Sequence record: MH706966
Length of the DNA stretch: 54,655 bases
Source of the DNA: Enterobacteria phage mEp021
Strand: one strand, 5' to 3'
Each line of letters opens with the position of its first letter. Position 1 is the stretch's first letter. The position numbers and the translations under genes are program-made. Positions 3,781 to 54,655 of this stretch are shown here, piece after piece. The notes under the pieces were generated by a model. That model ran no database searches. It saw only the letters and a list, made by a program, of their open reading frames with translations, and had not been told where the DNA came from.

Positions 3781-3789
3781 GGTCGCCCC

Positions 3790-6045: not shown

Positions 6046-6079
6046 TATGTTATTACCTCCGGTTTACAAAATGGAAAAT

Positions 6080-12761: not shown

Positions 12762-13399
12762 AAACAGAGTTACACAAAAAGCTGTGGACGATTCAACAAA
12801 CGTTGAATGCGCCGAAAAATCAGCGTAATAATTTCGGTGGGTACAATTACAGGTCGGCGGAGGATATTTTAGAGGCGGTTAAGCCACTGCTTCAAAATAT
12901 CACGCTGACTGTTAGCGATGAAATCGTCCTGATCGGCAATCGCTATTATGTGAAGGCCACAGCTACGCTAAGCGACGGTGAAGATGAAATTGCGGTAACT
13001 GCTTACGCCAGGGAAGAAGAAAGCAAGAAGGGAATGGACGCAAGCCAGTTAACTGGCGCGACATCAAGTTATGCGCGGAAATACGCGTTGAACGGATTGT
13101 TCTGTATTGATGATGCGCGAGATCCTGATACTGACGCATACGCGAAGCAGACTGGCCAGCAGCCTCGCCAGCAGAAAAACACACCAAAACAACAACCACA
13201 GCAGCAGAAAGCGCCGCCAAATCCTGACGAGGTGTTAGCGCGTTTCTGTGATGCAGCAGCGAAAGCGCCTGACGCTAACAAGTTGCGCGAGATATTCGGG
13301 AAGTGCTGGAAGCTACTTCCTAAAGATTCAGAACAGCAACAGAAAGCTAAAGACGTTTATGATATTCGCTTAAAAGAGCTTAACGGGGAGATCGGTTAA
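12758..13399 (+). CDS. erf: ERF-family single-strand annealing (recombination) protein
   Basis: 213 aa. ...NFGGYNYRSAEDILEAVKPLL...SYARKYALNGLF is typical of the ERF superfamily, with a Q/P-rich linker. Confidence 0.8.
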   Translation: MKTELHKKLWTIQQTLNAPKNQRNNFGGYNYRSAEDILEAVKPLLQNITLTVSDEIVLIGNRYYVKATATLSDGEDEIAVTAYAREEESKKGMDASQLTGATSSYARKYALNGLFCIDDARDPDTDAYAKQTGQQPRQQKNTPKQQPQQQKAPPNPDEVLARFCDAAAKAPDANKLREIFGKCWKLLPKDSEQQQKAKDVYDIRLKELNGEIG

Positions 13400-20232: not shown

Positions 20233-20409
20233 ATGCCTTTTAATAATTACCAATGGCATGACGACTATGAACGAGAAAGCGTCATGCGTGCAATGTGCAA
20301 TGTATGCAGCACGAAGAAAGGAGACTGCAACGAGTGCAACGAATGTTTAGATCATTGGCTAAGGGCCGGACACGCCGAAAGGCTGAACGAAACAGAAAAT
20401 CAAAAATAA
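20233..20409 (+). CDS. Small Cys-rich protein (58 aa)
   Basis: Not in the track. RBS AGGAGAG. MPFNNYQWHDDYERESVMRAMCNVCSTKKGDCNECNECLDHW... Confidence 0.4.
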   Translation: MPFNNYQWHDDYERESVMRAMCNVCSTKKGDCNECNECLDHWLRAGHAERLNETENQK

Positions 20410-20423
20410 TCGGGGTGATTTTT

Positions 20424-21029
20424 ATGCAGAACCCTAAAAAACCAATACGACGCCGTTGCAAATGCTGCGGCGTTTTTTTTGAGCCTAAATATCACAATCA
20501 AACGTGGTGCAGTGATGAATGTCTGGAAGAACTGAAGTTTGACCAGCTATGCCGCGACCGAGAAAAGGCTATGAAGGCTATGGAACGGAAGAAACGCCGC
20601 GACAGCCAGCGTGAGGAACGCAACCGGAAACGTAAACAGTTAAATCCGCGCAGCTACTGGATTAAACAGGCGCAAAACGTGTTTAACGCATATATTCGCG
20701 AACGTGACGCAGGACAGCCGTGTATATCTTGCGGGACTTATTATTACGAACAATGCGGCGCTGATGCTGGACACTGGCGCACAGTAGCGGCAGCCGGACA
20801 CCTTCGCTTTAACGAGGATAACGTAAACCTACAATGCCGACATTGCAATCAGGTATTAGACGGCAATGTAGAGTTATACAGAATAAATTTAATAAAAAAA
20901 ATAGGATTAGAAAGGGTGGAGGCATTAGAAAATAATAACGAGACTCACAAATGGACGATAGAAGAATGTAAGGAAATCATAAAAGTCTATCAGGCTAAAT
21001 TGGACGCCTTAAGGAGAAAGGCGGCATGA
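20424..21029 (+). CDS. ninG: NinG/Rap-family recombination endonuclease
   Basis: Trimmed to MQNPKKPIRRRCKCCG... PRSYWIKQAQNVFNAYIRERDAGQPCISCGT...GHWRTVAAAGHLRFNEDNVNLQCRHCN matches my recollection of lambda NinG closely. Confidence 0.8.
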   Translation: MQNPKKPIRRRCKCCGVFFEPKYHNQTWCSDECLEELKFDQLCRDREKAMKAMERKKRRDSQREERNRKRKQLNPRSYWIKQAQNVFNAYIRERDAGQPCISCGTYYYEQCGADAGHWRTVAAAGHLRFNEDNVNLQCRHCNQVLDGNVELYRINLIKKIGLERVEALENNNETHKWTIEECKEIIKVYQAKLDALRRKAA

Positions 21030-37725: not shown

Positions 37726-40071
37726 ATGTCCACCAGTTTAGGTACAATTTATTACGAAGTTGATGCAAAAACTGGTCAACTTCTAGTCGCTCAGAGACAG
37801 GCGGATCAGGCTTTTGACAGTATCGAGCGTGGCGCAAAACGCGCTGACCGCCAGGTTAACACGCTTAAAACTTCAATCAAAGCACTATCCAGGGTTATAC
37901 ATCTGCTACTTGCTGCGGAGGCTGTGCGCCAGTTTATTGACATGGCGGAGCAAGCAAAAATGCTTCGTGTCAAAATTAAAATGCTCACAGGTGACGCAGA
38001 GGCCGCAGGACGTGTTTTTGACGGCCTGAAAAAAATATCAAAGGAAACCGGGCAAAGCCTTAAAGACACTGGCGAATTGTGGCAAGGCCTGGCTATTTCA
38101 CTAAAGAATACTTCCGCTACGGAAGGCCAATTGCTCAACCTGGTTGGCACTATTCAGAAGATGGGGGCGTTAGGAGGCGCGTCAGCGGAACAGATGTCTA
38201 ATTCTATGCGCCAGTTCCGCCAGTCTATAGACGGCGGCGTGCTGCGTGCTGAAGAGTTTAACAGCCTGTTAGAGAACACGCCGACCATCGTACAGACAAT
38301 GGCCCGCCATATGGGGTTGTCAATGGGCCAGTTCCGCGCCGAAATGCTGGACGGCAAGATCACGGCTGAAAGGATGGTTAACGCGATTCAGGCAGCTACA
38401 CAGGAAACAAACGAGAAGTTTGCACAGTTGCCGCGCACGTCCGGCAAGGCTATCAATGAGCTTAAAGTTGAGGTGATGGGGCTTGTCGAACAACTTGACG
38501 ATCTTTTCGGCATATCAGATGGCGTTGTATCAGCTATCGACTTAATAACTGGCGGCGTTGAGGGATTAGGTAAAGGCGCTAAATTCGCCGCAACCTGTTT
38601 TAATACACTCAAAACGGCTGGCAGTGAGTTCATAGACATGTTTGACGACGTGGCTGTTAAGGCTGGCGAGGTGGCGGAAGAAATCATTAGAATGGTAACG
38701 CCAATCAAGGCGCTAATGGATGGCTACAAATGGATGAAGGAGATTGTAGGAAAGCAAACAGAAGAATATAACACCAATTATGAGAAGAAATACGGTAAAA
38801 GACTTGGTAAGGGAATGCAATTTTGGGATGATTGGCAGGCCGTACTTAACCAAACAAAAGAAAACAAGGGAACCGACACCGCTGACGACGGCAAGATCAC
38901 CGGATTCGAGCCACCAGTAGATAAGCCAGGAAAACCGAAAAAAGGAAAAAAAGACAAGAAATCTGAAGCTGATCGGCTTGGTGATGAAGGTATAAAAGTG
39001 TCCGACCAGTACAACAAGGACGCCGCCGCTATGCGCAAAGCATTAGAGAACGGCAAGGCCATTGATGCTGCATTCGCCCAGGGCAAAATCACCCTCCTTG
39101 AGTACAAGGCCGCGCAAAAGGGGATAGGCAAGGAACTGAAGGACGAATTGGCACAAATCCCGGTGGAAGAATTGCAAGATAAATGGGCGCACATAGTAAG
39201 CCCAATGGATCAGCTTAAGGGCGAAATTGACCCAATCAAACAGGCGCAGAATGAGTGGGCTGTCAGAAAACAAATGCTATTAGACCTGGGAGCTACAGAA
39301 GCGCAACAGAGACAGGCGCAGTTAGAATATGAGCAACAGATCAGGGATCTGAAGTGGGAGCAATGGCAGGCGCAAAGCGACACAAACAGCCTGATTGGTG
39401 CTTGTGTTAGCGGCCTCAAGGGTGGCATGGGTAATGCGCTTACTGGCCTGTTAAACGGTACTCAATCATTAAGCGAGGTTTTTGCCAACCTGGGAAGCAG
39501 CATACTTAACACCGTAGGCAATAAACTTTCGGAAATAGCCGCTAACTGGATAGCAGATCAATTGATGATGGAAACGCAAAGCAAGGCTACACAGGCAAGT
39601 ACAGCGGCTGGCGCTGTGGCAGCGCAGGGCGAGATTGCTGCGGCAGCGGCCCCGGCAGCGGCTGCGACGGCGGCATCAACTGGCGGTAGCTGGGCGGCGG
39701 CTGGTGCTGCGGCGCTTTCTGCTATCATGTCGCTGGCAACGTCAATTTTTGGCGGCGGTCGTTATAATGGTGGTTCTGTGAATGGTGGCAGTCTGTATCG
39801 CGTAGGGGAACACGGAATACCGGAGCTATTCCAGACGAGCAACGGGCGTCAGTATATGATTCCTGGGGAAAATGGCAGGGTTATTCCTGGCCGCGATCTT
39901 TTCAGTGGTGGCAGCATCAGTATGCCTGTTAACATTACCGTTCAGACCACAAACGGGTTTAGCGAAGAGGACAGTCGCAGATTGCAAGACGCCATGAAAC
40001 GCGTTGCAATGGGAGTAATTAAAGAGCAAAGTTCAAGGCCCGGAGGTCTTATCCAACCACGAAGAAAATAA
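37726..40071 (+). CDS. Tape measure protein
   Basis: 781 aa, largely helical, with a Gly/Ala-rich hydrophobic segment near the C-terminus. Confidence 0.9.
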   Translation: MSTSLGTIYYEVDAKTGQLLVAQRQADQAFDSIERGAKRADRQVNTLKTSIKALSRVIHLLLAAEAVRQFIDMAEQAKMLRVKIKMLTGDAEAAGRVFDGLKKISKETGQSLKDTGELWQGLAISLKNTSATEGQLLNLVGTIQKMGALGGASAEQMSNSMRQFRQSIDGGVLRAEEFNSLLENTPTIVQTMARHMGLSMGQFRAEMLDGKITAERMVNAIQAATQETNEKFAQLPRTSGKAINELKVEVMGLVEQLDDLFGISDGVVSAIDLITGGVEGLGKGAKFAATCFNTLKTAGSEFIDMFDDVAVKAGEVAEEIIRMVTPIKALMDGYKWMKEIVGKQTEEYNTNYEKKYGKRLGKGMQFWDDWQAVLNQTKENKGTDTADDGKITGFEPPVDKPGKPKKGKKDKKSEADRLGDEGIKVSDQYNKDAAAMRKALENGKAIDAAFAQGKITLLEYKAAQKGIGKELKDELAQIPVEELQDKWAHIVSPMDQLKGEIDPIKQAQNEWAVRKQMLLDLGATEAQQRQAQLEYEQQIRDLKWEQWQAQSDTNSLIGACVSGLKGGMGNALTGLLNGTQSLSEVFANLGSSILNTVGNKLSEIAANWIADQLMMETQSKATQASTAAGAVAAQGEIAAAAAPAAAATAASTGGSWAAAGAAALSAIMSLATSIFGGGRYNGGSVNGGSLYRVGEHGIPELFQTSNGRQYMIPGENGRVIPGRDLFSGGSISMPVNITVQTTNGFSEEDSRRLQDAMKRVAMGVIKEQSSRPGGLIQPRRK

Positions 40072-40089
40072 TTTATTGATTTAATCTTA

Positions 40090-40123
40090 CGCCCGCAAGA
40101 TAATGACGTATCCTTGCGGGCTT
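40090..40123. terminator. Bidirectional hairpin terminator between the tape measure gene (+) and the minus-strand island
   Basis: GCCCGCAAG-N13-CTTGCGGGC followed by TTTGCTT. Confidence 0.65.
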
Positions 40124-40126
40124 TGC

Positions 40127-41461
40127 TTACGCGGCTTTTATAATTTCTTTATACTTATCTTCCACCATGTTAAAAACCTCTGGTCTGTAGTAGAAAAATT
40201 CGCAACTACCATCAAATTTTACTGGGAAGTTAATTTTGTAATTATTAAGGGTTTTGTGTATCGCGCCTTCTAGTTCATAGATATTTTGTGTCGGACCTTC
40301 TAATGTTTTTACGATATGCAAATCAGGAATCGTTACACCCGCTTTATGTGCGCTACTTAGTATTCTATTTCTTCGTTCGTTTTCCTTAACACTTACCCCT
40401 ACTTTCATTAGCGTTGGTACTTCCAGATCGTCAACCATGATATAAAGTTTGCCGCGTTCGTAGGATAAAAAACCCTTTTTAGCACATTTAGAACAGCCGC
40501 TACCTTCCTTAAGTTTTTGCGGCGTGGTTCGCCACTTATAACCACACACTTTACATAAACACGATACTTTGTTTTTATTCCCTGTTATTTTACCTACCAC
40601 TTTGATATTAGGGTTGATGTTGGCAATGGCTTTTACTTGCTCATCATGTGATATTCTTCGTGCTTGCGATCCTTTTCGTTTCGCACACTTCGGGCAACCA
40701 GTACCTTTTTTAAGGCTGGCTGGAGTAGTTAACCACTCATGACTGCAAGACTTACAGCGGCATAACGTTCTCGTAGTATTGTTAATAATTTTTTCTAATA
40801 CCTCAACGCTAGGACTGGTTTTCGCAATAACTGCAATTTGTTCTTCATGTGATAGTTTGGTGTGTCCGCTACATTTCGGGCAGCCAGTACCATGCTTGAT
40901 GTTGTTGGGAGTTGCTGGCCATTCATGATTGCAAATCTTACATTTGCATAATACTTTTTTTAAACTCGCAGATTAAAAGGGGTTTTATTCAATATTGCTG
41001 TTAACCTTCGCAATAGCTGCAACTTGTTCTTCATGCGTTAATCTTCTATCTGCGCATTTTGGGCAACCTTGCCCGATTTTAAGTGTTTCAGGTCTAGCCA
41101 ACCATTCATGATCACAAACTTTGCAATGGCATAATACCTTTGTTTTATTATTAATAATTACCCCTAACACCTTAATATCAGGATTAACTTTAGCAATAAT
41201 TGCAACCTGTTCTTCGTGTGGTAATGCCCGTTTTTGTGCTCTTTTTAACGCCGCACATTTAGGGCAACCAACACCGCGCTTAAGATCAGCAGGTCTACCA
41301 AACCATTCGTGATTACAAGTTTTGCAGCAGCATGATACTTTTTCCATATTCCCGGTAATTACCCCTATCACCTCGATATTGGGGTTAACTTTTGCAATAG
41401 CGGCAACTTGTTCTTCGTGTGTTAATTTTTTTGTCATAATACCGCTCCTACAATCTTCCAT
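40127..41461 (-). pseudogene. Second Zn-ribbon-array/T5orf172 paralogue (five modules), interrupted by two in-frame TAA codons
   Basis: One 445-codon frame. The track ORFs 40985-41461 and 40127-40600 are its two ends. Stops are at 40985-40987 and 40973-40975, and there is no start codon for the 120 codons in between. Confidence 0.65.
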
Positions 41462-41547
41462 TCCGTCCTACATAACTCCTGCCGAACATTACCAACCAGA
41501 TGCTCCAGATCTCCCGCCATGTGTATTTCTCATTCTTCATACCCGCC

Positions 41548-41802
41548 TCACTTATGAGCGCCTTTTACGCCACATAACTTGTTATAAAAATGGTGCTCAA
41601 CGATTAACCAAACCCTCAGATCTTCACTGAACAGCCGCCAATCAGGATTAATGTCAAACTTCCAGCCATAACCATCGCGTAACTTTTTGGGGTTGGCCTC
41701 TTTCTTCAGGAAAGCATTTAATAAGGCTTTTCCCTTTTTGATGATCCGGTCCTGTGCGTTTTTCTGTGCTTTCAGGTTTTTACCAATCGCCACCAATTTC
41801 AT
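41548..41802 (-). CDS. Basic 84-aa protein (weak RelE/ParE-like look)
   Basis: Trimmed to the ATG with RBS GGGGTGG. ...KKLRDGYGWKFDINPDWRLFSEDLRVWLIVEHH. Confidence 0.5.
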   Translation of the reverse strand: MKLVAIGKNLKAQKNAQDRIIKKGKALLNAFLKKEANPKKLRDGYGWKFDINPDWRLFSEDLRVWLIVEHHFYNKLCGVKGAHK

Positions 41803-43384: not shown

Positions 43385-43738
43385 TTATTTGCCATTAAAA
43401 CAGCCCAGGTTATCTATGCAGAAGTCTTTTGCCGCTTTTTCGTATTCGCGTTTTGCTTCCGGATCGTCAGCTGGAAAACCTTTTGCGTGTATTTCTCCAG
43501 GGCAAGATTGATCCATAGAATCAGCAAATTCAACATTGACGTTAAAGTTAATATCTTTCGGGTTCATCTCTTCCACCTTATCCGGTACTTGGACCGGAGT
43601 AATATCAAAATCACGATAGTTAAACCCACAGCGAAGTAATTCACGACCTTCATCACGCGCCGCAGCATATGTGTCAAATAGGCCCATGCGTTCCCATCCG
43701 CATTTATTAGTAAACACGTCTAAACTGTATTTTTGCAT
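43385..43738 (-). CDS. Hypothetical protein (117 aa), acidic, several Cys
   Basis: ORF in the minus-strand cassette. Confidence 0.55.
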   Translation of the reverse strand: MQKYSLDVFTNKCGWERMGLFDTYAAARDEGRELLRCGFNYRDFDITPVQVPDKVEEMNPKDINFNVNVEFADSMDQSCPGEIHAKGFPADDPEAKREYEKAAKDFCIDNLGCFNGK

Positions 43739-43750
43739 TTTGTTAACCTC

Positions 43751-43906
43751 TCATTTGACGGGTTCGATCTCGTACCCCAAAACGCGTTCGTCTTCAGCAA
43801 GTAAAAGCGCGTCAACCAGCGCATCGCCTTCATCTTTATACAGGGCCACAAGCATTTCCCTGCCATCAGCCAGGAACACCGTCAACCTCCACACCTTATC
43901 ATCCAT
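43751..43906 (-). CDS. Acidic 51-aa protein, first gene of the cassette
   Basis: Trimmed to the ATG with RBS GGAGGTG. A motif copy lies directly upstream. Confidence 0.45.
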   Translation of the reverse strand: MDDKVWRLTVFLADGREMLVALYKDEGDALVDALLLAEDERVLGYEIEPVK

Positions 43907-43987
43907 CGCACACCTCCGCGCCATTTTGTTAACCCTGCTTCCTTTTGAGTACAATATACATATTGTAAAAAGCGCTATCAACCGTTT

Positions 43988-43996
43988 TGGTATGAT
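43988..43996 (+). promoter_or_regulatory. Extended -10 element TGGTATGAT upstream of gpL
   Basis: Fits the TGnTATnAT pattern, fused to a CCGTTTTGG word. Confidence 0.3.
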
Positions 43997-44033
43997 TTAG
44001 CGTGACGTAGATCACAAATTGCAAGGTGATAAA

Positions 44034-44738
44034 ATGCGCAGCATACCTACAGAAATGATTATTGATTCCGTGGATGCCGGAGTCGGCGCGGTAATTGACT
44101 TGTTTGAATTAGACCTCACGCCCCTGGGTGGCGAGGTTATCCGCTTCCATTCCGGCGCGAATGGCTATTACGGCCCGGTTATCTGGAAGGGGGTGGCCTA
44201 CAACAGCTACCCAATCGAGGCGACTGGCTTCGAAATGAAAAACGAAGGCGTTTACTCACGCCCACAAATGGTAGTAGCCAACATCGGCGGGCTAATCACC
44301 GGGATGAATAACGATTTTAACGACCTGCGAGGAATGAAGGTTACGCGCCGCCAGGTGGAGGTAAAATACCTGGACGCCGTTAATTTCCCCAACGGCAACC
44401 CGGATGCAGATCCATCTATTGAGGCTGTGTCTTTTTACGTCGTTGAAGCGATGAGTGAAGAAACAGCCGACCAGGTGCAATATGAACTGTCAACGCCAAT
44501 TGATGCTGATAAGGCGGTTATCCCTGGGCGCACAATTCTCGCTGACGTTTGCCAGTGGCAATATCGCGGCGACGGTTGCGGATACAGTGGCGGCCCTGTA
44601 GCTACAGATAAAGACGAATCGACCAGCGATCCAAAACTGGATAGATGCAGCCACCGCCTGAGCGGTTGCCGTTTGCGTTTTCCGCGCCCCAACCCGTTAC
44701 CAATTTCCTGTTTCCCGGGATCAAGCAAGGTGGGTTGA
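44034..44738 (+). CDS. Minor tail protein L
   Basis: Trimmed to the ATG with RBS AAGGTGA. Carries the conserved gpL Cys cluster CQWQYRGDGCGY. Confidence 0.85.
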   Translation: MRSIPTEMIIDSVDAGVGAVIDLFELDLTPLGGEVIRFHSGANGYYGPVIWKGVAYNSYPIEATGFEMKNEGVYSRPQMVVANIGGLITGMNNDFNDLRGMKVTRRQVEVKYLDAVNFPNGNPDADPSIEAVSFYVVEAMSEETADQVQYELSTPIDADKAVIPGRTILADVCQWQYRGDGCGYSGGPVATDKDESTSDPKLDRCSHRLSGCRLRFPRPNPLPISCFPGSSKVG

Positions 44739-44740
44739 TT

Positions 44741-45472
44741 ATGGCGCTTGAAGATAAAATGATTCGCTATGCCGCAGCACACCCGGAAGAGGAGGTGTGC
44801 GGGCTGGTGATAGATAACGATTATTTTTACCCGTGCTTAAACGTGTCTGAAACGCCGCACAACAGCTTTAAAATATCGCCTGACGATTATATCAAAGCTG
44901 ACGAATTAGGCGTTATAACCGCCGTTTTTCACTCCCATACTGACAATTCGTTGATATTGTCAGCACGGGATCGACAACAGCAGGTTATTTCCGGCCTGCC
45001 GTGGTATTTGTGTTCCGGCGGCAGGGTTAGAAAGTTCCGCCCGGTGGCGCACCTGTTGGGCCGTAAATTTGAACACGGTAAAACAGATTGTTACTCGCTT
45101 TTCCGTGACGCATATCACCTATGCGGCGTGGATCTGCCCGACTTTGAGCGCCACGATGGGTGGTGGCTGCGTGGGGAAAACCTGTACATAAAAAACCTGC
45201 CATTGAACGGGTTTTTCATGGTTGACGCGCAAAGCATTCAGCCAGGTGATGTGATTATTCGCCAGCCTTTTAAAGGCGCTGACCCATGTCACGCGATGAT
45301 TTACCTGGGCGATAACACCGTTTTGCATCATGACAATGCCGGACTGTTAAGCCGCCGCGAGCAAATGCGGCCAGCTTATGTTAGGCAAACGCATTCAATA
45401 TGGAGATCTGACAAATGCTCAAATTTAGATTTACGGGCAATCTTCGAAGATATTACGGCAAGGTGTGTTTAA
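44741..45472 (+). CDS. Tail assembly protein K (JAB/MPN + NlpC/P60 domains)
   Basis: EEEVCG...AVFHSHTDNS (JAMM-like) followed by GKTDCYSLFRDAY...H (NlpC/P60-like). Confidence 0.85.
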   Translation: MALEDKMIRYAAAHPEEEVCGLVIDNDYFYPCLNVSETPHNSFKISPDDYIKADELGVITAVFHSHTDNSLILSARDRQQQVISGLPWYLCSGGRVRKFRPVAHLLGRKFEHGKTDCYSLFRDAYHLCGVDLPDFERHDGWWLRGENLYIKNLPLNGFFMVDAQSIQPGDVIIRQPFKGADPCHAMIYLGDNTVLHHDNAGLLSRREQMRPAYVRQTHSIWRSDKCSNLDLRAIFEDITARCV

Positions 45473-45945
45473 ACGTTGATACGCCAGCGCAGGGACTTCG
45501 CTTATTGACCGCACAGAATCAGGAGTTCAAGAAGGCTTTTTTAAACACCCCATTGCGCTTGCGAATTGCCGGAAAAGATTACGACGAAAAGACCGCACCC
45601 GCAGCGGTTAACAGTAAATACCAGGATGGTACTACCGTCATTGTTGCGCCAGTGGTGGAAGGCGGTATTGCAGGGATTGGCGTTGTAGGCTGGATTTTGA
45701 TCGGTGTTTCGGTTGTTAGCGTTGCGTTCTCAAGAGTTGTGTCACGCAACATGAAGATAAAAACATCAGCAGAAAGCGCACAAGATAACACCATATCTAA
45801 CAACACATACACCAGCGTTGAAAACAAGGTTGGCCAGGGTAGACCAGTGCCGATCCTGTTGGGTGAAATGAAAATAGGTTCAAACGTCGGATCGTTAGGC
45901 ATAGACACAAGTAATAACAAAGACGCCTTAGACGTTGTAAGTTAA
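45415..45945 (+). CDS. Tail assembly protein I
   Basis: 176 aa. Ubiquitin-like N-terminus with a central hydrophobic segment, and it overlaps K as in lambda. Confidence 0.75.
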   Translation: MLKFRFTGNLRRYYGKVCLNVDTPAQGLRLLTAQNQEFKKAFLNTPLRLRIAGKDYDEKTAPAAVNSKYQDGTTVIVAPVVEGGIAGIGVVGWILIGVSVVSVAFSRVVSRNMKIKTSAESAQDNTISNNTYTSVENKVGQGRPVPILLGEMKIGSNVGSLGIDTSNNKDALDVVS

Positions 45946-45957
45946 TAGGGGGTTACA

Positions 45958-46524
45958 GTGAACTGGTCTGAATTGTTTGTTTATGATGAAGATTCTCCTT
46001 CATGTTTAAGGTGGAAAGTCACCGCTAACAGCAGAACGGCGAGGACTGGCGATGCGGCAGGAAAAATAGTAGCGGCAAAAAGCGGCAATAAGTACTGGAA
46101 AATCACATGGAAGGGCCGTCGCTATTATGCTCACCGGATTGTTTACGAATTATGCAGTGGCAGAAAATTAAAACGCAGTGAGATCATCGATCACATTGAT
46201 GGTAATGGGCTTAATAATAAATTCAATAACATACGCGTAACAGATAAAAAAGGTAACGCCAGAAATATGACCATAGGTCGCGCGACAAGGGAGAGCGGAT
46301 TGCCATTTGGGATATGTTGGCACGCAGAAGGGAGATCTATTAGAGCACGTATCACCGCTGATAACGACAAAAGAGTTAGTAAATCATTTAGCGTTATAGC
46401 GTGCGGTGGACTTGAAATGGCTATTAATGCCGCCGTCGCGTGGCGGTCATTCATGATTGAAGAGCTAAATAAAGCTGGCGCAGGATACACGAAATTACAC
46501 GAAACAGGGGGTTTATATGTCTAG
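45958..46524 (+). CDS. HNH homing endonuclease with AP2-type domain (second copy)
   Basis: GTG start with RBS AGGGGG. IIDHIDGNGLNNKFNNIRVTDKKGNARN plus GLPFGICWHAEGRSIRARI. Inserted between I and J. Confidence 0.8.
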   Translation: MNWSELFVYDEDSPSCLRWKVTANSRTARTGDAAGKIVAAKSGNKYWKITWKGRRYYAHRIVYELCSGRKLKRSEIIDHIDGNGLNNKFNNIRVTDKKGNARNMTIGRATRESGLPFGICWHAEGRSIRARITADNDKRVSKSFSVIACGGLEMAINAAVAWRSFMIEELNKAGAGYTKLHETGGLYV

Positions 46525-49500
46525 TGGCGGCGGTAAAGCAAAAACGCCAACTTTGCTTAATGATAATTTGTTTCATAAACAATTTTATCGGGTTTTAGAT
46601 ATTCTAAGTGAAGGACCAATTTTTGGAGTAGTTAACCAAACAGCGCCATTAAACAGCGTAATGCTTAATGACACGCCTATCACTGACGCAAGCGGAAACA
46701 CATCAGTCCCTGGCGTTAGCTTAGCGTGGCGTAATGGTACGGCTGACCAGTCACCAATCAACGGCTTCAACGCTATTGAGTCAACCGTTATTGTCAACGC
46801 AAAAGTAACTCACGACACACCAATAATCAGGACCATTTCAGATCCCAACGTTAACCGCGTAAGGCTGAATCTTGGCGTTGACTCTTTGGTAAGGTCAGAT
46901 GACAAGGGCAATCAATACAATACATCCGTTATGTTGATGGTTGATGTCAAACCTTCATCGTCATCAACGTGGTCACTGGTTAAAGATATTACTATTGGCC
47001 CAGGCAAACAAAGCGGTGAGTATCTAGAAGCCCACATTATCAACGCGCCGGATGAAAAACCGTTTGATATTCGCGTTCGTCGCGTAACGCCAGACAGCAC
47101 GGGAGATCTTCTTCACAATGATACCAGGTGGAGCAGTTACAGCGAGATAATCGATGATAATTTGTCTTATCCCCATACCGCTGTTGCTGGCGCGGTAATT
47201 GACCACGATCAGTATACTGATACGCCTACCCGCACCTATCATCTGCGTGGGCTGATTGTTGATGTTCCTGATAACTACGACCCGGAAACGCGCACGTATT
47301 CAGGATTATGGCTTGGTGGCTTTAAAAAGGCGTATACCAATAACCCTGCATGGCTTTTCCGGTATCTGGTTAAAAATGAACGTTTCGGGCTTGCCCGTCA
47401 TGCTGGTTACATTGATGTTGACGACGGCGCATTATATACGCTTTCTCAATACTGCGACCAGTTGGTTAGCGACGGATACGGCGGCTTTGAACCTCGCATG
47501 ACGCTTAATGCTTACATCACGGAGCAAATGAGCGCACGCGACTTACTTGATAACATTGCAGGCATGTTCCGTGGTATCGCGTTATGGGACGGGCAACGCC
47601 TTACCGTGATGATTGATGCACCACAAGATCCGATCGCCACCATTACAAATGCAAACGTCGTTGATGGCGCGTTTACTCGTTCAAGTATTGCCCGCGCAGA
47701 ATCTTACAACGCCGTGATTGTGTCATGGACTGACCCAGAAAACGGCTGGGAGCAATCAAAAGAATACGTGGCAGATGATGAATTGATCGCCCGCGACGGT
47801 TATAACGAAACAACGCTAGAGGCGTTCGGTTGCACGTCACGCGGGCAAGCGTACCGCGCTGGCAAATGGCTGATAGAAACGGCAAAACGCGAGCCATCAA
47901 AATTCACGTTTAAAATGGCCCGTGACGCAATTCACTTCACCCCCGGGGATATTATCGAGATACTCGACAATAACCGCGCTGGCGCTCGTTTAGGCGGCCG
48001 CATCGTGGCGAACAGTGGGAAGGTGATAACGGTAGACAAGGTTGATTCTGAATATATCGCGGCTGGTGACACTATCAGTTTACTTGATAGTGATGGCAAG
48101 TTTAAAAAACACCAGATCACCGGAGTTAACGGAAACAACATCACCCTTGCAACCGCCCCCGCATGGATTCGTAACGGGACCGTATTCGCTGTGTCAACTG
48201 AAGCGGCAAAACCTGTTCTGTGTCGAATTATCAGCGTAGCAGAAACAGAAAATAACAGCGTGTACACCATCGAGGCAGCACAACATGACCCACACAAACA
48301 GGCTGTAGTTGATGAAGGCGCAATCTTCGAGGTAAACAACGACACGCTTAATCACTTCCGCGTGCCGAACATTGAAAATCTGAAGGTGTTAAACGTTGGT
48401 TCTGAAACTGTTCAATGTCGCGCTACATGGGAAACACAGACGACAACGCATCGCCTGACCTTTGAAATACGCGTATATAACGCCGAAGGCCGCGTGGTGG
48501 CAGCTTATGAAACAACGAATTACCGCTATGATTTTTATGGCCTCGATGCTGGCAGCTACACACTTGGTATTCGCGGTCGTAATGACACTGGCATGAAGGG
48601 GGCGGAAAGTATTGTTGACCTGGTTATTGGCGCGCCAGCGGCCCCAATTGGAGTTAATTGGGTTCCCGGCGTTTTCCAGGCAACAGTATACCCGATCAGC
48701 AAAACAACACTGACAACTGATACAGCATACGAGTTCTATTTCTCAGGTGAAAATCAGATCACTGACCCATCAAAAGTAACAACTTTGGCGCAGTTTACCG
48801 GGCGCGGCTATCAGTGGACTTTTGGCGGAATGAACACGGGCCATACCTATTACGTTTATGTCCGCACACGTAACGCTTTTGGTGTGTCAGATTTCGTTGA
48901 GTCATCAGGAAAACCAACTGAAAACTTCGATGAAATTAGCGACTACGTCACCAAAGACGTGATTAACTCAGAACAGTTTAAAGGGATGATTAGCGACATT
49001 AAAGATCTTGGCGACCGCGCCGACCTTATCGAAAGCGCTACAAATGACCTTAAAACTGCTACCGACAACCTCAAAACTGCAACTGATAACCTGACAAACA
49101 TCACTGACGATTTAATGGTTGACACTGACAACCTGACAAACATCACTGACGAATTGAGGACTGATACGGACGGCTTAATCACAGAAACAGGGGCCATAAA
49201 AGCTGATACGGACACACTGAAAAAACAAACGGAAGATCTTTATAAAAAGGTTGGGGAAAACGCCGATGATATTGGACAGCATGAGGCAAGAATAGATTCA
49301 CTGGAGGTATCTAGCGAAAAAGTTGGCAGTGAACTTGCGCAAGCAAAAGCAAGCCTGCAAAACGCGTCATTGGCGCTTATCAATAACTCACTTGCACAGA
49401 CTAACACTCGCGTAACTCTTACCGCTCAGTATAAGAAAGGCAGGACAGAGACGAAGGCTGAAATTGACCGTATTGACAACGTTATTGCTGAAGAGAAAAA

Positions 49501-51700
49501 GGCAACGGCTGAATCACTGGAAACCATCACGGCAGAAATGAACACGATGGATTCTAACCTTAAAGGTCAGATCTCAAGCGTGGAACGCGCAGTGGCTGAC
49601 GAGGCCAGCGCACGCGCAGAAGCCATTAACGGTGTGAACGCATCAATAAGCAATCTAGACAAGAAAACAGACGCCAGCATCAATAGACTTGATCAAGCTA
49701 TTGCAGACGAAACGAACGCCCGCACACAGGCAGTCAGTGACGTTAACGCGAGTATCTCATCGCTAGACAAGAAAACTGACGCCAGCGTTAAACGCTTGGA
49801 TCAAGCAATTGCAGACGAAACCAGTGCAAGAACTGAAGCTATCAGCGGCGTGAACGCATCAATTTCCACTCTTGATAGCAAGGTAACAAGCAATGTAACG
49901 CGCATAGATAAAGCTATTGCAGACGAAACGAAGGCACGCACTGACGCAATCAGCGGCGTTAATGCAAGTATTAGCACACTCGAAGGCAACACCAATTCAG
50001 AAGTGAAACGCCTTGATCAAGCAATAGCTGACGAGACTAGTGCCCGCACACAGGCTATCAGCGGTGTAAATGCTTCGATAAGCAATCTTGAAAGCAAAAC
50101 TGACGCGAGCGTTTCCCGTCTTGATAAAGCAATATCAGATGAAACGCAGGCAAGAAGTGCCGCAATAACAGAGGTTAAAGCTGATTTGTCAACGCTCGAA
50201 AATAGCACAAACGCCAGCGTTAAACGCCTTGATCAGGCGATTGCCGACGAATCAAGCGCACGCGCTGAAGCAATATCGGGCATCAACGCAGAGATTGGCA
50301 ACATTGAAAATAATGTTGACAAAAACAGCGATGATATAAATCAGACAAAAGCAAGCCTGCAAAACGCGTCTATCGCGCTTATTAACAACTCAATCGCTCA
50401 AACAAACACGCGTGTTACGCTTACGGCCCAATACAAGAAAGGCCGCAAAGAAACCAACGCGCAAATTGACCGTATTGACAATGTTATCGCTGAAGAGAAA
50501 AAGGCTACAGCGGAAGCGGTTAGCGTGGTAAAAGCATCGATCACGGATCTTGATAAGAAGACTGACGCGAGTGTTTCCCGTCTCGACAAGGCTATCGCAG
50601 ACGAAACAAGCGCACGCAGCGAGGCTATTAGCGGAGTAAATGCCTCAGTGTCAGCGCTAGACAAGAAAACGGATTCAAACATAAGCCGTCTTGATAAAGC
50701 CATTGCAGATGAGACAAGCGCAAGAACTGAAGCTATCAGTGGAGTGAATGCAAGTATTATCACTCTTGAAAGCAACACTGAATCTGAAGTTGGCAGGCTG
50801 GATCAGGCAATTGCCGACGAATCAAGTGCCCGCGCCCAGGCTATAAGCGGAGTGAACGCATCAATTTCCACTCTTGATAGTAAGGTGACAAGTAACGTAA
50901 CCCGTATTGATAAGGCTATTGCAGACGAAACGAAGGCACGCACTGACGCGATAAGTAGCCTTAATTCATCGCTTACCAGTACGATTAATTCGAAAGTGTC
51001 TGAAGTATCAACGGCACTTTCTACGCATGAAGCATCAAGCGCTGAAAAATTTAGCCAGATCTCTGCGTCTTTCGAATCTGTAAACTCAAGTATTACAGAA
51101 TGGTCACAATCTATGGCAACGGCTGACGAGGCATTGTCAACCAAAATTGATCAGTTAACAGTAACCGTTAACGGTAACAAAACGGCGATCGAGACGACAT
51201 CGAATGCGCTAACCGATTTCAAGGGTAACGTTGATGCGTCATATTCAATCAAGCTCGCCACCGATAACAACGGCATGAAGTACGCGACAGGTATGTCGCT
51301 TGGCCTGACTGGTAACGGCACAAACTTTCAATCGCAGTGTATTTTCCTCGTTGACCGCTTCGTGTTAATGACCTCAGCAAACGGCACATATACAACACCT
51401 TTCTATGTCACCAATGGTGCGATGTATGTGAAAGAAGCGTTTATTAAAGACGGATCGATCGATACTGCAAAAATAGCGCAGCAAATCCAGTCAACTGTAT
51501 TTGTTCAAGACTCAAAAGGTTGGATGATTAACAAAGATGGATGGGCGCAATTCAACGAAGTTACTGTAAGGGGTAACGTCATTGTTAAAGGCAATCAAAA
51601 TTTCGATGTACGCAATAGTGACGGACGGGTAATTATTAACAATAATGGCATTACAGTAAATCTTCCTAGTGGTGGTAAAATTATTATCGGTGTTTGGTAA
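46517..51700 (+). CDS. Central tail fibre / host specificity protein J, greatly extended by a coiled-coil repeat region
   Basis: 1727 aa. The N-terminal part of about 800 aa is J-like, including FN3-like segments. It is followed by heptad-like and 36-aa repeats and then a C-terminal beta-rich tip. Confidence 0.9.
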   Translation: MSSGGGKAKTPTLLNDNLFHKQFYRVLDILSEGPIFGVVNQTAPLNSVMLNDTPITDASGNTSVPGVSLAWRNGTADQSPINGFNAIESTVIVNAKVTHDTPIIRTISDPNVNRVRLNLGVDSLVRSDDKGNQYNTSVMLMVDVKPSSSSTWSLVKDITIGPGKQSGEYLEAHIINAPDEKPFDIRVRRVTPDSTGDLLHNDTRWSSYSEIIDDNLSYPHTAVAGAVIDHDQYTDTPTRTYHLRGLIVDVPDNYDPETRTYSGLWLGGFKKAYTNNPAWLFRYLVKNERFGLARHAGYIDVDDGALYTLSQYCDQLVSDGYGGFEPRMTLNAYITEQMSARDLLDNIAGMFRGIALWDGQRLTVMIDAPQDPIATITNANVVDGAFTRSSIARAESYNAVIVSWTDPENGWEQSKEYVADDELIARDGYNETTLEAFGCTSRGQAYRAGKWLIETAKREPSKFTFKMARDAIHFTPGDIIEILDNNRAGARLGGRIVANSGKVITVDKVDSEYIAAGDTISLLDSDGKFKKHQITGVNGNNITLATAPAWIRNGTVFAVSTEAAKPVLCRIISVAETENNSVYTIEAAQHDPHKQAVVDEGAIFEVNNDTLNHFRVPNIENLKVLNVGSETVQCRATWETQTTTHRLTFEIRVYNAEGRVVAAYETTNYRYDFYGLDAGSYTLGIRGRNDTGMKGAESIVDLVIGAPAAPIGVNWVPGVFQATVYPISKTTLTTDTAYEFYFSGENQITDPSKVTTLAQFTGRGYQWTFGGMNTGHTYYVYVRTRNAFGVSDFVESSGKPTENFDEISDYVTKDVINSEQFKGMISDIKDLGDRADLIESATNDLKTATDNLKTATDNLTNITDDLMVDTDNLTNITDELRTDTDGLITETGAIKADTDTLKKQTEDLYKKVGENADDIGQHEARIDSLEVSSEKVGSELAQAKASLQNASLALINNSLAQTNTRVTLTAQYKKGRTETKAEIDRIDNVIAEEKKATAESLETITAEMNTMDSNLKGQISSVERAVADEASARAEAINGVNASISNLDKKTDASINRLDQAIADETNARTQAVSDVNASISSLDKKTDASVKRLDQAIADETSARTEAISGVNASISTLDSKVTSNVTRIDKAIADETKARTDAISGVNASISTLEGNTNSEVKRLDQAIADETSARTQAISGVNASISNLESKTDASVSRLDKAISDETQARSAAITEVKADLSTLENSTNASVKRLDQAIADESSARAEAISGINAEIGNIENNVDKNSDDINQTKASLQNASIALINNSIAQTNTRVTLTAQYKKGRKETNAQIDRIDNVIAEEKKATAEAVSVVKASITDLDKKTDASVSRLDKAIADETSARSEAISGVNASVSALDKKTDSNISRLDKAIADETSARTEAISGVNASIITLESNTESEVGRLDQAIADESSARAQAISGVNASISTLDSKVTSNVTRIDKAIADETKARTDAISSLNSSLTSTINSKVSEVSTALSTHEASSAEKFSQISASFESVNSSITEWSQSMATADEALSTKIDQLTVTVNGNKTAIETTSNALTDFKGNVDASYSIKLATDNNGMKYATGMSLGLTGNGTNFQSQCIFLVDRFVLMTSANGTYTTPFYVTNGAMYVKEAFIKDGSIDTAKIAQQIQSTVFVQDSKGWMINKDGWAQFNEVTVRGNVIVKGNQNFDVRNSDGRVIINNNGITVNLPSGGKIIIGVW
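49580..50990 (+). repeat. About 11 copies of a 108-bp (36-aa) coding repeat, organised as a roughly 1002-bp tandem duplication
   Basis: Unit LDQAIADETSARTEAISGVNASIS.LD.KT.A.V.R. Blocks at 49345-49515 and 49800-49975 recur at +1002 bp with about 85-90% identity by eye. Confidence 0.85.
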
Positions 51701-51740
51701 CCACTGTTGCCCCGCCAAATGGTTGGGGCAACTAATTTTA

Positions 51741-52676
51741 TTAATAAATTACTGGCAAATAAGGAAGATTCATACCTATACAGAAATCCGGCCTGTTACC
51801 TATTTCATACCTGACAATCCTTGATCCTGTTCCGCTTTTCACCTGCCCGTTGTACATCATAATGCCTTTGTATCTTAGTTCCTTGTATGCTGATATAGCT
51901 CTAGTATTAAAGCCGCATCTCAATATTGGGAAGAACGCGTCACCTATTGTCTGGTAACTATTCGATAACGCTATAAATCCCTTAACAACCAATGGCCTTT
52001 GTTTTGTTGAAAACACGCATTGATTATTTTTATTAATGATGGTTATTCCGTCGCCAGGTGATGGCGGTGATTTGCTAAAAATAGCCAAATTCATCGTTAC
52101 CGATCCATATGTGTCACCAGTTGCAGAAGTGTTTGTGTTTGTACAGATCAATTTATTGTTTCCGTCAAACTCAACTGAAACACCGCTATTGCTCCAGTTA
52201 CCGAAAGGAACACCGGCAACTGGCATAGTGTAAGAACCATTAAAGCTAACACTCCCAACCCATAAACATGACATCAATGTATCGTTAGTCGTTATCGATG
52301 CAAAATCTGTGCTATCTGCAACTAATATACCCTCACCAGTAGACGCCTTTGCTATCTCAAACACGCTACCGCTAAAATTAGTGATCCTATCAGAATATGC
52401 GTTCTCACCACTAATTGAAATCCTTGCCGTGCCACCAGAAGCACTAAAGCCTGATATAAAATATGTTTCAACACCCCTGTCAAGCTCAAACGCGTAAGCG
52501 CCTACCTTTGGGATTAGAAACTTATCGCCGCCAGTTAAATCCTTTATGGAAAAACTTTGCGAAAACCCAGCATTTTGAATATTGAAATCTCCAGCGTGTG
52601 AGAACGCACGCAACCCGCTTGTTATTTCCATTGCAGGGCGTCCGTCATTCAGCCCAATATATATACCCGCCCCCAT
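51741..52676 (-). CDS. Beta-rich 311-aa protein of unknown function
   Basis: Trimmed to the ATG overlapping the lipoprotein stop (TAATG). Ser/Gly/Thr/Asn-rich with no signal peptide seen. Confidence 0.6.
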   Translation of the reverse strand: MGAGIYIGLNDGRPAMEITSGLRAFSHAGDFNIQNAGFSQSFSIKDLTGGDKFLIPKVGAYAFELDRGVETYFISGFSASGGTARISISGENAYSDRITNFSGSVFEIAKASTGEGILVADSTDFASITTNDTLMSCLWVGSVSFNGSYTMPVAGVPFGNWSNSGVSVEFDGNNKLICTNTNTSATGDTYGSVTMNLAIFSKSPPSPGDGITIINKNNQCVFSTKQRPLVVKGFIALSNSYQTIGDAFFPILRCGFNTRAISAYKELRYKGIMMYNGQVKSGTGSRIVRYEIGNRPDFCIGMNLPYLPVIY

Positions 52677-52894
52677 TAGTACCACTCCTTACTTCCGCAA
52701 TCTCTAGTCTTGCCACTATGACCATCAGTGCCATCATAAACGCGACAGATCTCACCGGACGGAACCTTAGCCCCGTCAACCCATCTTTCATAGCAGACAC
52801 CGTATGCGCTAGTTGCACAATGGCCGTTGTGTCGATTAGTGTCAGCGCAACCAACCAGAATAGCCGCAACAGCGATAATTGTTACCATTTTCAT
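52676..52894 (-). CDS. Small Cys-rich lipoprotein (72 aa), Cor/Llp-like position
   Basis: MKMVTIIAVAAILVGC lipobox, RBS GGGGTG, and six further Cys in the mature part. Confidence 0.65.
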   Translation of the reverse strand: MKMVTIIAVAAILVGCADTNRHNGHCATSAYGVCYERWVDGAKVPSGEICRVYDGTDGHSGKTRDCGSKEWY

Positions 52895-52986
52895 TAGTAC
52901 ACCCCACTCAGATTGTGTGTATTTGTTGCTTTGTTTATTATAATATACATTTTGTATAAGCATAAAATGCAACATAGATCACAAAA

Positions 52987-52995
52987 TGGTAGAAT
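52987..52995 (+). promoter_or_regulatory. Extended -10 element TGGTAGAAT upstream of the side tail fibre gene
   Basis: Fused to a CACAAAATGG word. The ATG is 34 nt downstream and has a GGAG RBS. Confidence 0.35.
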
Positions 52996-53028
52996 TATTC
53001 CGTTAATTAACATAATGGAGTCATTGCG

Positions 53029-54378
53029 ATGATTTACACAACTGGAACAATTGCCATCAATGGCAACACTGTTACAGGCACGGGTACAAACTTTTCCGCG
53101 CCGCTTTCTCTCATTCGTGTAGGTTGCACGCTCATTACCATCGGCAATCCGGTGCAGATCTTTACCATCACAGAAAGGCCCAGCGGTACTGAACTGTCAG
53201 TAACGCCAGCGGCTAACCCTGCGATCCCCGCCGGAACAAAATTTAGCATTCTGCTTTCTGACTCGATCTCAGTAGATGGTCTTGCTCAGGACGTAGCTGA
53301 AACGCTGCGTTACTACCAGGGTAAGGAAACTGAAATTGCAGAAGCAATTGAATTTTTCCATGAATTTGATTTCAATGCACTTACAACGCTGGCTAACCAG
53401 GTTCACACTGATTCAGCGCAAGTAAGCGCAGATAAAGCGATAGTTCAGCAATATAAAACAGATTCCGAATCAGCCAAATCAGCAGCAGAAGCTGCAAAAG
53501 GTCAGGCGGTGTTAGCTCAAACCGCCGCAGAGACAGCTAATACCAACGCGCAAGCCGCCAGCACTGCAGCGCAGGGATTTTGCGATCGGGCCGAAGAATG
53601 GGCGCAAAGCGTAAACCCCGACAACCTGCTAACTAAAGCCGGCAACCTGGCAGGGTTGACAGATAAATCGGCGGCGAGGTCCAATCTTGGGGTTGGAGAT
53701 AATAGTTTAGTTAAGTTAGGTGCGCTGCACCTGAATGGTGGTGAGTCATTAGTGTTAAGGGGCGCAGAGTCTAACGAGTTAAGGTTGTCAAACTCTTTAT
53801 ACGGGGCTGATAGCTGGGTTGGGATGACGATGCATAAGTGGTACGAGGATTGGACGCGGGCTGGCTTGGTAAGGGGAGGTGGTACCAAATTATCAGACTA
53901 CCGCATCCATGTGTGGAAAGATGGTATATCTGATGCTTTATTCCGATTTTTGCCCGACCAAAGGCTTATTAGCGGCAACAGTGACAACCCGGCGGTTAAC
54001 GAGTTCCAGAAAGCGCCGCTATCGGACCGCGACCATAAAAAAGAAATCCAATACACGGACGGCGAGGAAAGCTACAACCGCGTTCGCCAATGGCTTCCGG
54101 TAATGTTTAAGTATAAAGAGTCGGATGTACAGCGATACGGCCTTATCGCGCAGGACCTGGTAAGGATTGACCCGGAATACGTGCATTTGCTGCCGGGCTA
54201 CGCCATCTATGAGGACGTCAAGGGGGTGGACGAGGAAGGGAACGAGGTAGTAGTAGACCGGAAGGAGATCGGGTATACAGACGATGTGCTGTCTCTAGAC
54301 AGTAATGTGCTGTTGATGGATCTGTGTGCCGCCTTCGTTCATCTGTTGCATAAAGTGGAGAAGCTGGAAGGTAAGTAA
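53029..54378 (+). CDS. Side tail fibre with a C-terminal intramolecular chaperone (peptidase S74) domain
   Basis: 449 aa. The N-terminus IYTTGTIAINGNTVTGTGTNF is typical of fibre proteins. The C-terminus SDRDHKKEI...RYGLIAQDL...LSLD...L is typical of the S74 autoproteolytic chaperone. Confidence 0.85.
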   Translation: MIYTTGTIAINGNTVTGTGTNFSAPLSLIRVGCTLITIGNPVQIFTITERPSGTELSVTPAANPAIPAGTKFSILLSDSISVDGLAQDVAETLRYYQGKETEIAEAIEFFHEFDFNALTTLANQVHTDSAQVSADKAIVQQYKTDSESAKSAAEAAKGQAVLAQTAAETANTNAQAASTAAQGFCDRAEEWAQSVNPDNLLTKAGNLAGLTDKSAARSNLGVGDNSLVKLGALHLNGGESLVLRGAESNELRLSNSLYGADSWVGMTMHKWYEDWTRAGLVRGGGTKLSDYRIHVWKDGISDALFRFLPDQRLISGNSDNPAVNEFQKAPLSDRDHKKEIQYTDGEESYNRVRQWLPVMFKYKESDVQRYGLIAQDLVRIDPEYVHLLPGYAIYEDVKGVDEEGNEVVVDRKEIGYTDDVLSLDSNVLLMDLCAAFVHLLHKVEKLEGK

Positions 54379-54384
54379 GGAAAA

Positions 54385-54406
54385 GGGGCCATACGGCCCC
54401 TTCTTT
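54385..54406. terminator. Hairpin terminator after the fibre gene
   Basis: GGGGCC-ATAC-GGCCCC followed by TTCTTT. Confidence 0.7.
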
Positions 54407-54536
54407 AGTTTGAGTTTTCCCAGCCCATTTTACGCCGCACCAACGAGATTTCGTAGTATTCCTTGCCTTCTACCTCCACCAACGGCCAATCGTTAATAAT
54501 CACGTATATCTCCGCTATACCTCAATCACGCCGCGC

Positions 54537-54565
54537 GAAACGAGGCTAACGCCTCGTTTCTTTTT
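54537..54565 (+). terminator. Strong rho-independent terminator abutting the candidate attR core
   Basis: GAAACGAGGC-TAAC-GCCTCGTTTC followed by TTTTT. The T-tract runs into the repeat. Confidence 0.6.
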
Positions 54566-54586
54566 GTGTACCAAATAGAGACCAAA
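54564..54586. repeat. Candidate attR core (direct repeat of 150-172)
   Basis: TTGTGTACCAAATAGAGACCAAA, identical to the left copy at 21 of 23 positions. Confidence 0.4.
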
Positions 54587-54655
54587 TATCCAAAACAAAA
54601 AGCAAAAGCACTGTAACATACTGTTTTATAAATGATTATTCACAACACTAATCAT

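Follow-up and report, generated by a model that had tools for sequence, protein, structure and literature searches.

The complete genome of Enterobacteria phage mEp021 (sequence record MH706966), a temperate Escherichia coli siphophage of the mEpimmI group, was analysed along its entire 54,655 nucleotides (hereafter the window), and attention centred on its gene J, which encodes the tip attachment protein or central tail fibre. Very probably this 1727-residue product is a lambda-type J in which the alpha-helical shaft (AHS) has been enlarged by repeats to approximately 740 residues, arranged in an old two-module layout, and in which shaft length is altered by unequal recombination. Judged from the sequences, the recent event affecting these repeats is a deletion in the relative mEp515 and not a duplication in mEp021. 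Repeat-driven length variation is well known in fibrous proteins, and the repeats of this phage group are already in print in one sentence, stating that the C-terminal region of J "contains repeats of different length (positions 950-1,475)"; J proteins are also known to differ in size (PMC11893012). The text and supplements of that study, when searched, contained no unit definition, two-module structure, AHS homology or recombination junction. What is new here is the repeat anatomy, its placement as an expansion of the AHS and the mapped deletion junction.

The reading frame of J is intact and devoid of internal stop codons. Five Pfam domains are recognizable in its product: FNIII-A_GpJ (aa 88–214), Phage-tail_3 (aa 335–492), Ig_J (aa 609–707), Ig_J_second (aa 709–811) and Phage_Tail_Tip (aa 1557–1691, 1e-36). 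In a search of solved structures, lambda gpJ aligned in two separate portions, residues 1–858 with aa 1–851 (E = 3e-180) and residues 854–932 with aa 1567–1645. A preliminary description of this DNA, prepared from the sequence alone, had noted a J-like amino-terminal part of about 800 residues, and both the Pfam domains, which reach aa 811, and the lambda alignment bear this out. The counterpart in mEp515, mEp044 and other relatives is annotated as "host specificity protein J". Upstream of J, Pfam identifies Phage_tail_L (44019–44738) followed by K, which combines NLPC_P60 and Prok-JAB domains (44645–45472); gene I (open reading frame (ORF) 45415–45945) has no Pfam match and is named from the near-identical mEp515 gene annotated "tail assembly protein I". 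Apart from an HNH gene lodged between I and J, the order L–K–I–J is that found in lambda. Three attributes of a lambda-type J are present: an amino-terminal hub with two FNIII/Ig domains, a carboxy-terminal beta-prism domain and an L–K–I context. Mass spectrometry has placed J among the mEp021 virion proteins (PMC11893012).

In lambda gpJ the domains succeed one another as hub, FNIII-1, FNIII-2, AHS (residues 809–861, a three-helix bundle), beta-prism and receptor-binding domain, and upon LamB binding the AHS flips and refolds, freeing the FNIII domains (PMC11101478). By alignment, the mEp021 repeats are an expansion of the AHS between FNIII-2 and the beta-prism. As the lambda alignment splits at the C-terminal end of the AHS, approximately 715 residues are inserted at this one point. 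The resulting shaft of ∼740 residues, compared with ∼53 in lambda, is equivalent to a ∼14-fold expansion.

The anatomy of the shaft is composite. Ten heptads (ATNDLKT ATDNLKT and so on) occupy aa 841–910, nt 49037–49246, and correspond to the short repeats that the preliminary description had located at about 49020–49210. They are followed by thirteen units of 36 residues, all in a single 108-nt register. Ten of these units are canonical, one is a half copy that begins at aa 1461, and those at aa 983 and aa 1317 are degenerate; the earlier count of about 11 was a fair one. Each unit divides into halves of 18 residues, in which positions 1, 4, 8, 11 and 15 belong to the core; Gly21 is nearly invariant and the charged surface residues R3, D5, D10, E11, R15 and N23 are invariant. 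A block of 39 residues, the A block, starts at aa 944 and again at aa 1278 and heads each of two modules, the larger repeat amounting to ∼1.66 copies. The block of about 57 residues previously seen to occur twice was recovered at aa 944–999 and 1278–1333, with 91% identity in amino acids and 82% in nucleotides.

When every in-frame offset was scanned, 1002 nt emerged as the top self-match, in agreement with the earlier statement that the segment at 49345 recurs at 50347. The high identity attributed to that recurrence needs qualification: identity is 82% over 170 nt (49344–49513 versus 50346–50515) and 84–88% over ∼140 nt (49812–49950 versus 50814–50952), but the ∼300 nt in between reach only 60–69%, which is the background level for any two units. 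Tandem Repeats Finder (TRF) returned fragments only, with period 21 at 49047–49092 and period 108 with 1.9 copies, the units being ∼60–70% identical in DNA and the 1002-nt period lying above the TRF limit of 500; the architecture was recovered at the protein level by means of unit hidden Markov models (HMMs). Because the unit HMM scores 55–76 bits per copy and the same architecture recurs in independent assemblies, it does not stem from chance. The features are collected in Table 1.

Table 1. Coordinates of gene J, the parts of its shaft, the mEp515 crossover intervals and a candidate recombinase gene in the mEp021 genome
Feature	Position	Strand	Basis
Gene J (tip attachment protein / central tail fibre)	46517–51700	+	1727-aa ORF, five gpJ Pfam domains, lambda gpJ match
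Hub domains and two FNIII/Ig domains (aa 1–811), collinear with lambda gpJ	46517–48949	+	Pfam; alignment to PDB 8IYK chain J
Shaft start (aa 804–943)	48926–49345	+	First ∼50 aa align to lambda AHS: lambda 809–858 versus aa 802–851
Module 1 (aa 944–1277, 1002 nt)	49346–50347	+	Unit HMM 60–76 bits, A-block HMM 92 bits
Module 1, A1	49346–49462	+	
Module 1, degenerate unit	49463–49570	+	
Module 1, seven 36-aa units	49571–50326	+	
Module 1, 7-aa linker		+	
Crossover interval, left copy (5 nt)	49907–49911	+	mEp515 tract comparison
Module 2 (aa 1278–1496)	50348–51004	+	Unit and A-block HMMs; 60–88% nt identity to module 1
Module 2, A2	50348–50464	+	
Module 2, degenerate unit	50465–50572	+	
Module 2, three 36-aa units	50573–50896	+	
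Module 2, hybrid half unit	50897–51004	+	
Crossover interval, right copy	50909–50913	+	mEp515 tract comparison
Shaft, non-repeated end (aa 1497–1545)	51005–51151	+	AlphaFold2 helix to aa 1545; conserved in all relatives
Tail-tip fibre domain (aa 1557–1691), equivalent of lambda central-straight-fibre beta-prism	51185–51589	+	Pfam Phage_Tail_Tip; lambda alignment
Short variable C-terminal tip, presumed receptor-binding	51590–51697	+	Identical in mEp515; departs from mEp044 after aa 1688
ERF-family single-strand-annealing recombinase, candidate catalyst	12758–13399	+	Pfam ERF 3e-42

The two modules are long-standing companions. Synonymous divergence (dS) between them ranges from 0.7 to 1.8, with values of 1.3 for the A blocks extended by 17 aa, 1.2 for unit 1091 versus unit 1425 and 0.8–1.0 around the most similar stretch, and the ratio of nonsynonymous to synonymous divergence (dN/dS) is ∼0.04–0.08. 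Both modules are found in mEp044, mEp554, mEp010, UMNK88, WCHEC025970, NRZ96606 and strain 190, which retain the diagnostic differences between the blocks, SLAL/NNSL in A1 versus SIAL/NNSI in A2. Two modules occur in at least 33 of the 130 relatives compared, including genomes that are only 84–90% identical in DNA. With synonymous sites near saturation and both modules present in diverged relatives, the duplication is ancient, and both copies are under strong purifying selection.

The most telling relative is mEp515, which is collinear with mEp021 from the integrase onward. Its J is 1393 residues long, that is 1727 minus 334, and its gene equals that of mEp021 less exactly 1002 nt. The two J genes coincide from their start up to nt 3395 and again throughout the final 792 nt, and as these tracts overlap by 5 nt the crossover falls within the paired intervals listed in Table 1. 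These adjoin the longest exact match between the modules, a 35-nt stretch at 49913–49947 that is repeated at 50915–50949. On the left the mEp515 gene displays module-1 variants and on the right module-2 variants, which indicates that one deletion, in register, produced it from an allele with two modules; it is not the ancestral form. Over the ∼11-kb right arm (∼43510–54655) the two phages differ at ∼13 positions, confined to four small spots, in addition to the 1002-nt indel, whereas the rest of the genome is 83–99% identical; with the arm otherwise nearly identical, the deletion must be very recent. As a separate observation, the near-identical arm spans L, K, I, HNH, J, DUF6453, lipoprotein and side fibre genes. 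Its uniformity points to a tail-tip arm recently shared or exchanged with mEp515 as a module.

Length polymorphism is widespread beyond this pair. Matches to the J gene were found in mEp044 (93.5%), mEp554 (89.8%) and mEp515 (99.4% over 84% of the query), as well as in mEp010, mEp013 and MagusPhagus, and in 35 of 5426 complete E. coli genomes. The preliminary description had proposed a comparison of J length among related prophages, and repeat number proves far from invariant: 130 distinct J proteins harbour between 3 and 15 units in register and measure 1362–1935 residues. Ninety-seven contain one A block and 33 contain two. The helical segment preceding A1 is 97, 104, 111, 118, 125, 139 or 153 residues long, and these steps of 7 residues imply that the number of heptads varies too. 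Unit numbers in the two modules change independently of each other among relatives. In mEp010 and the prophage of E. coli LP-26-E1-261 (LP26), interior units of module 1 are missing and hybrid units are present, and in NRZ96606 and strain 190 module 1 contains eleven canonical units, with module-2-like units inserted. The LP26 J protein has two identical consecutive 36-residue units at aa 1231–1302 and a third that is nearly identical, which denotes a fresh unit duplication.

These patterns indicate that the shaft changes length when its units or modules undergo unequal homologous recombination, for which the partners may lie in the same genome or in related phages infecting one cell. Each event adds or removes whole units and thereby preserves the register of the core, the step being 36 residues (∼5.4 nm) for a unit and 334 residues (∼50 nm) for a module. 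The phage ERF annealing protein (Table 1) or host RecA may act as catalyst. A NinG gene, whose product is a further plausible catalyst, is present at 20295–21029. The preliminary description had expected recombination between the repeats to change both length and specificity of the central fibre: the former is borne out by the mEp515 junction and the range of 3–15 units, the latter is not, as the receptor follows the tip.

The HNH gene mentioned above is a 188-residue HNH_3 endonuclease ORF (45958–46524, + strand) that overlaps the start of J by 8 nt. It is present in mEp021 and mEp515 and absent in mEp044, mEp554, mEp010, mEp013 and MagusPhagus, in which I and J are directly adjacent. If it acts as a homing endonuclease, the enzyme might favour local gene conversion of the J region.

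The repeats had originally been taken as the product of a recent in-frame tandem duplication of roughly 1 kb in the mEp021 genome, and the argument is not without appeal: no other offset matches as well as 1002, amino-acid identity between the A blocks reaches 91% and mEp515 is short by exactly 1002 nt. The arrangement is indeed in frame. A recent event, though, would leave copies near-identical at synonymous sites and confined to the closest relatives, and neither is the case: the copies are 60–88% identical in DNA with saturated synonymous sites, and the relatives that possess both modules include some that are merely 84–90% identical overall. Furthermore, the mEp515 flanks match module 1 on the left and module 2 on the right, which lie 12–18% apart, as in a recombinant rather than an ancestor. 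A recent origin of the duplication in mEp021 is thus very hard to sustain. A related concern is that misassembly of the repeats generated either the mEp021 duplication or the mEp515 deletion, given that such sequences are prone to it and that the mEp genomes derive from short reads. A false duplication would yield identical copies, and the modules differ at 12–40% of positions; besides, the two-module layout is present in the independent complete chromosomes of UMNK88, WCHEC025970, NRZ96606 and strain 190. Copy divergence and these complete genomes rule out misassembly in mEp021. As to mEp515, a collapse would have had only 35 nt of uninterrupted identity between modules to act on, and SPAdes final k-mer sizes are typically well above this figure. 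The mEpimmI paper also reports distinct restriction fragment length polymorphism and virion-protein patterns for each phage. Overall, an assembly artefact is improbable.

Two further proposals were considered. J is a host-range determinant and has its repeats in the C-terminal half, features that could invite programmed hypervariation by a diversity-generating retroelement or by site-specific shuffling. The preliminary description had already discounted a retroelement for want of a reverse transcriptase, rightly so: no reverse transcriptase domain was detected in the 35 mEp021 ORFs of at least 170 residues and none is annotated in mEp515, and no adenine-specific mismatch pattern was found between the copies, in which all bases are involved. 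What varies is the number of whole units in the shaft and not the residues of the receptor-binding tip, and the sole site-specific recombinase found, the integrase (186–1400), is distant from J. The likelihood of such a mechanism is vanishingly small. Alternatively, side fibres or accessory proteins might dock on the shaft, with unit number setting the ligand load. This idea draws on the F2-type pyocin, whose side fibres bind a Gly kink in a long AHS (PMC13455828), on Gly21 and the invariant charged surface residues, which represent more conservation than a passive spacer requires, and on the A blocks, modelled with low confidence and possibly non-helical nodes. The invariant charged residues, however, are also expected from inter-helix salt bridges in a trimer, and the mEp021 side fibre (53029–54378) has no sequence similarity to the F2 pyocin chains, its N-terminus being of the Klebsiella depolymerase anchor type. 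We regard a docking role as unlikely.

The preferred reading of the shaft is that of a helical rod built from recombining repeats. The preliminary description had also held that the repeats lengthen a coiled-coil shaft, and three features speak for a helical structure: the model obtained with AlphaFold2 (AF2), the lack of proline and the hydrophobic periodicity. An AF2 monomer model of J aa 800–1727, based on 46 homologues, predicts helix over aa 804–1545 with breaks at aa 923–938, 1297–1299 and 1308–1309, the individual helices extending over aa 819–922, 939–1296 and 1310–1545. The predicted local distance difference test (pLDDT) score of the helices is mostly 55–80. Not a single proline occurs in aa 812–1560 (749 residues), and hydrophobic residues recur with a period of 3.52 in the heptad segment and of 3.60 in the 36-residue units, the latter corresponding to 10 core positions per unit. 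A helix free of breakers and a core periodicity within 3.5–3.67 are among the properties of an AHS-type structure. The solved three-stranded AHS of the F2 pyocin J homologue and the similar 18-residue repeats of a trimeric adhesin, both described below, add to the case for a helical rod. The shaft is most likely a parallel, in-register three-stranded helical rod, given its homology to the AHS of lambda, which is a trimer; such packing also agrees with the free variation in unit number, a freedom that an antiparallel fold-back would lack. If fully extended, the rod would measure ∼110 nm at 0.15 nm per residue and would keep the small receptor-binding tip well away from the tail tube. A profile search with the 36-residue unit over 1.84 billion representatives retrieved 57 proteins, including J-like proteins and one adhesin; this result is used qualitatively only, as it includes spurious TPR matches.

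Several points weigh against this picture. The AF2 monomer has a mean pLDDT of 60.6 and a predicted template modelling score of 0.24, and at each of the A blocks pLDDT is lower than 50, so that the rod may be kinked or form a non-helical node there. The published transmission electron microscopy description gives tails of ∼130 nm and makes no mention of a 100-nm tip fibre. The list of 120 homologues was score-ranked and, unexpectedly, lacks the known long alleles, and the distribution of copy numbers may therefore be biased. The short mEp515 allele comes from one Illumina/SPAdes assembly, in which a mis-join via the 35-nt stretch is unlikely. Finally, length variation could be neutral: mEp515 with its short J and mEp021 with its long J both plate on K-12 via OmpA.

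Receptor usage is independent of shaft length. OmpA is needed by mEp021 and mEp515, LamB by mEp010, mEp013, mEp044 and mEp554 (PMC11893012). The J proteins of mEp021 and mEp044 are 95.8% identical up to aa 1688 and diverge beyond this residue. Receptor choice follows the C-terminal tip, that is the last 40–140 residues, and not the length of the shaft, because mEp044 and mEp554 combine the same shaft with LamB, and mEp515 combines the same tip and a shaft shorter by 334 residues with OmpA.

The genes adjacent to this tip deserve separate mention. Just downstream of J, in antisense orientation, lie a gene for a DUF6453 protein (51741–52685, − strand, 314 residues) and a small ORF (52676–52975, − strand) whose translation reveals a candidate lipobox, LVGC. 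The pair accompanies short J tips of the mEp021 type (220–231 residues past the last unit) in mEp515 and WCHEC025970; at the DUF6453/lipoprotein position LamB-type phages have only a 249-nt gene. The mEpimmI paper ties the lipoprotein to superinfection exclusion (PMC11893012). Further downstream, the side tail fibre (+ strand, 449 residues) is homologous at aa 3–168 to the anchor of Klebsiella phage depolymerases (PDB 7VYV, 7LZJ) and ends in a Peptidase_S74 intramolecular chaperone; the fibres of relatives at that position are much longer.

Trimeric shafts with a variable number of repeats are found in adenovirus fibre, T4 fibritin and the stalks of trimeric autotransporter adhesins, where repeat number sets the length of the rod. 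These proteins are unrelated to J, and the adenovirus shaft is a triple beta-spiral and not helical. Among characterized systems, lambda gpJ (PDB 8IYK, 8XCI; Ge & Wang 2024, PMC11101478) shares with mEp021 the domain order, the L–K–I–J gene order and a tip that binds an outer-membrane protein. It differs in that its AHS of ∼53 residues (809–861) has no counterpart of the repeat-built, ∼740-residue shaft, and in that its receptor-binding domain is an Ig-like domain that binds LamB, whereas the mEp021 tip extends ∼40 residues past the conserved stretch and is associated with OmpA in the tip-identical mEp515. The F2-type pyocin PyoF10 (PDB 25VF; PMC13455828) has a J homologue whose AHS, called "exceptionally long", was solved as a coiled coil of three strands that contains an insertion as well as a kink; it is much shorter (1204 residues for the whole protein), is not described as repeat-built and docks side fibres.

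Similar arrays are present in several J-like proteins of the representative library. The J protein of Klebsiella phage vB_KpnS_SXFY507 (Drexlerviridae; 280–6909, 2209 residues) contains more than 20 units of ∼36 residues with the pattern x-L-x-x-A-I-A-x-E-x-x-A-R... and a higher-order duplication at an offset of 414 residues, which at 28 of 30 residues identical looks very recent. It belongs to another phage family, is only ∼29% identical to mEp021 J overall and has other unit sequences. Beyond phages, the trimeric autotransporter adhesin P0128, which has a YadA anchor, harbours at aa 1457–1726 about a dozen 18-residue repeats, VSRLDTAISDEKTKREQ, that closely resemble the first half of the unit. 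The likeness could be convergent, or a coiled-coil building block could have been exchanged; outside the short motif we do not propose homology.

The phages mEp021 and mEp515 represent an almost isogenic tail-tip pair, with the same tip and side fibre and shafts that differ by 334 residues. They are suited to asking whether fibre length affects adsorption through O-antigen or capsule, and how the signal from a bound receptor is passed to the tail tip across a helical latch ∼14 times longer than that of lambda. In lambda the AHS is a 53-residue latch that, by refolding, links receptor binding with the opening of the tail tip. A possible, if somewhat doubtful, extension of the present findings is that the J shaft is a rigid rod of ∼110 nm, nearly as long as the ∼130-nm tail, and that its length is a rapidly tunable trait matching the thickness of the O-antigen or capsule layer of the host. 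Such a rod would be straight and non-supercoiled, since in the 18/36-residue repeat one core position falls every 3.6 residues. If this holds, a single recombination step could change length by ∼50 nm while the phage stays infectious and keeps its receptor, and the lambda trigger model would need to be extended, either by transmission of a signal along a very long bundle or by a collapse of the shaft that brings the tube to the membrane. For annotation, it follows that J length is set by recombining repeats, that J genes assembled from short reads need checking and that host range is to be read from the last 40–140 residues and not from the length of J.

A few minor observations complete the survey. 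The tape measure protein (37726–40071, + strand, 781 residues) lies in a region, 37784–41723, without megablast similarity to mEp515. An inverse relation between tape measure and J shaft lengths, conceivable from mEp021 (781/742 residues) and mEp515 (1051/408 residues), was rejected as it is not upheld in three more phages: mEp044 (782 residues, long shaft), mEp010 (782 residues, intermediate shaft) and mEp013 (735 residues, short shaft). Three antisense ORFs of 90–126 residues are embedded in the repeats (48943–49215, 50398–50778 and 50803–51144, − strand); they look like by-products of a repetitive, stop-poor coding sequence, and nothing supports their status as genes. Elsewhere in the genome, within a region that is not collinear with mEp515, an ORF of 495 residues (7737–9224, − strand) encodes five DUF4379 treble-clef zinc fingers, four CapR-homology domains and a C-terminal T5orf172/MUG113 domain.

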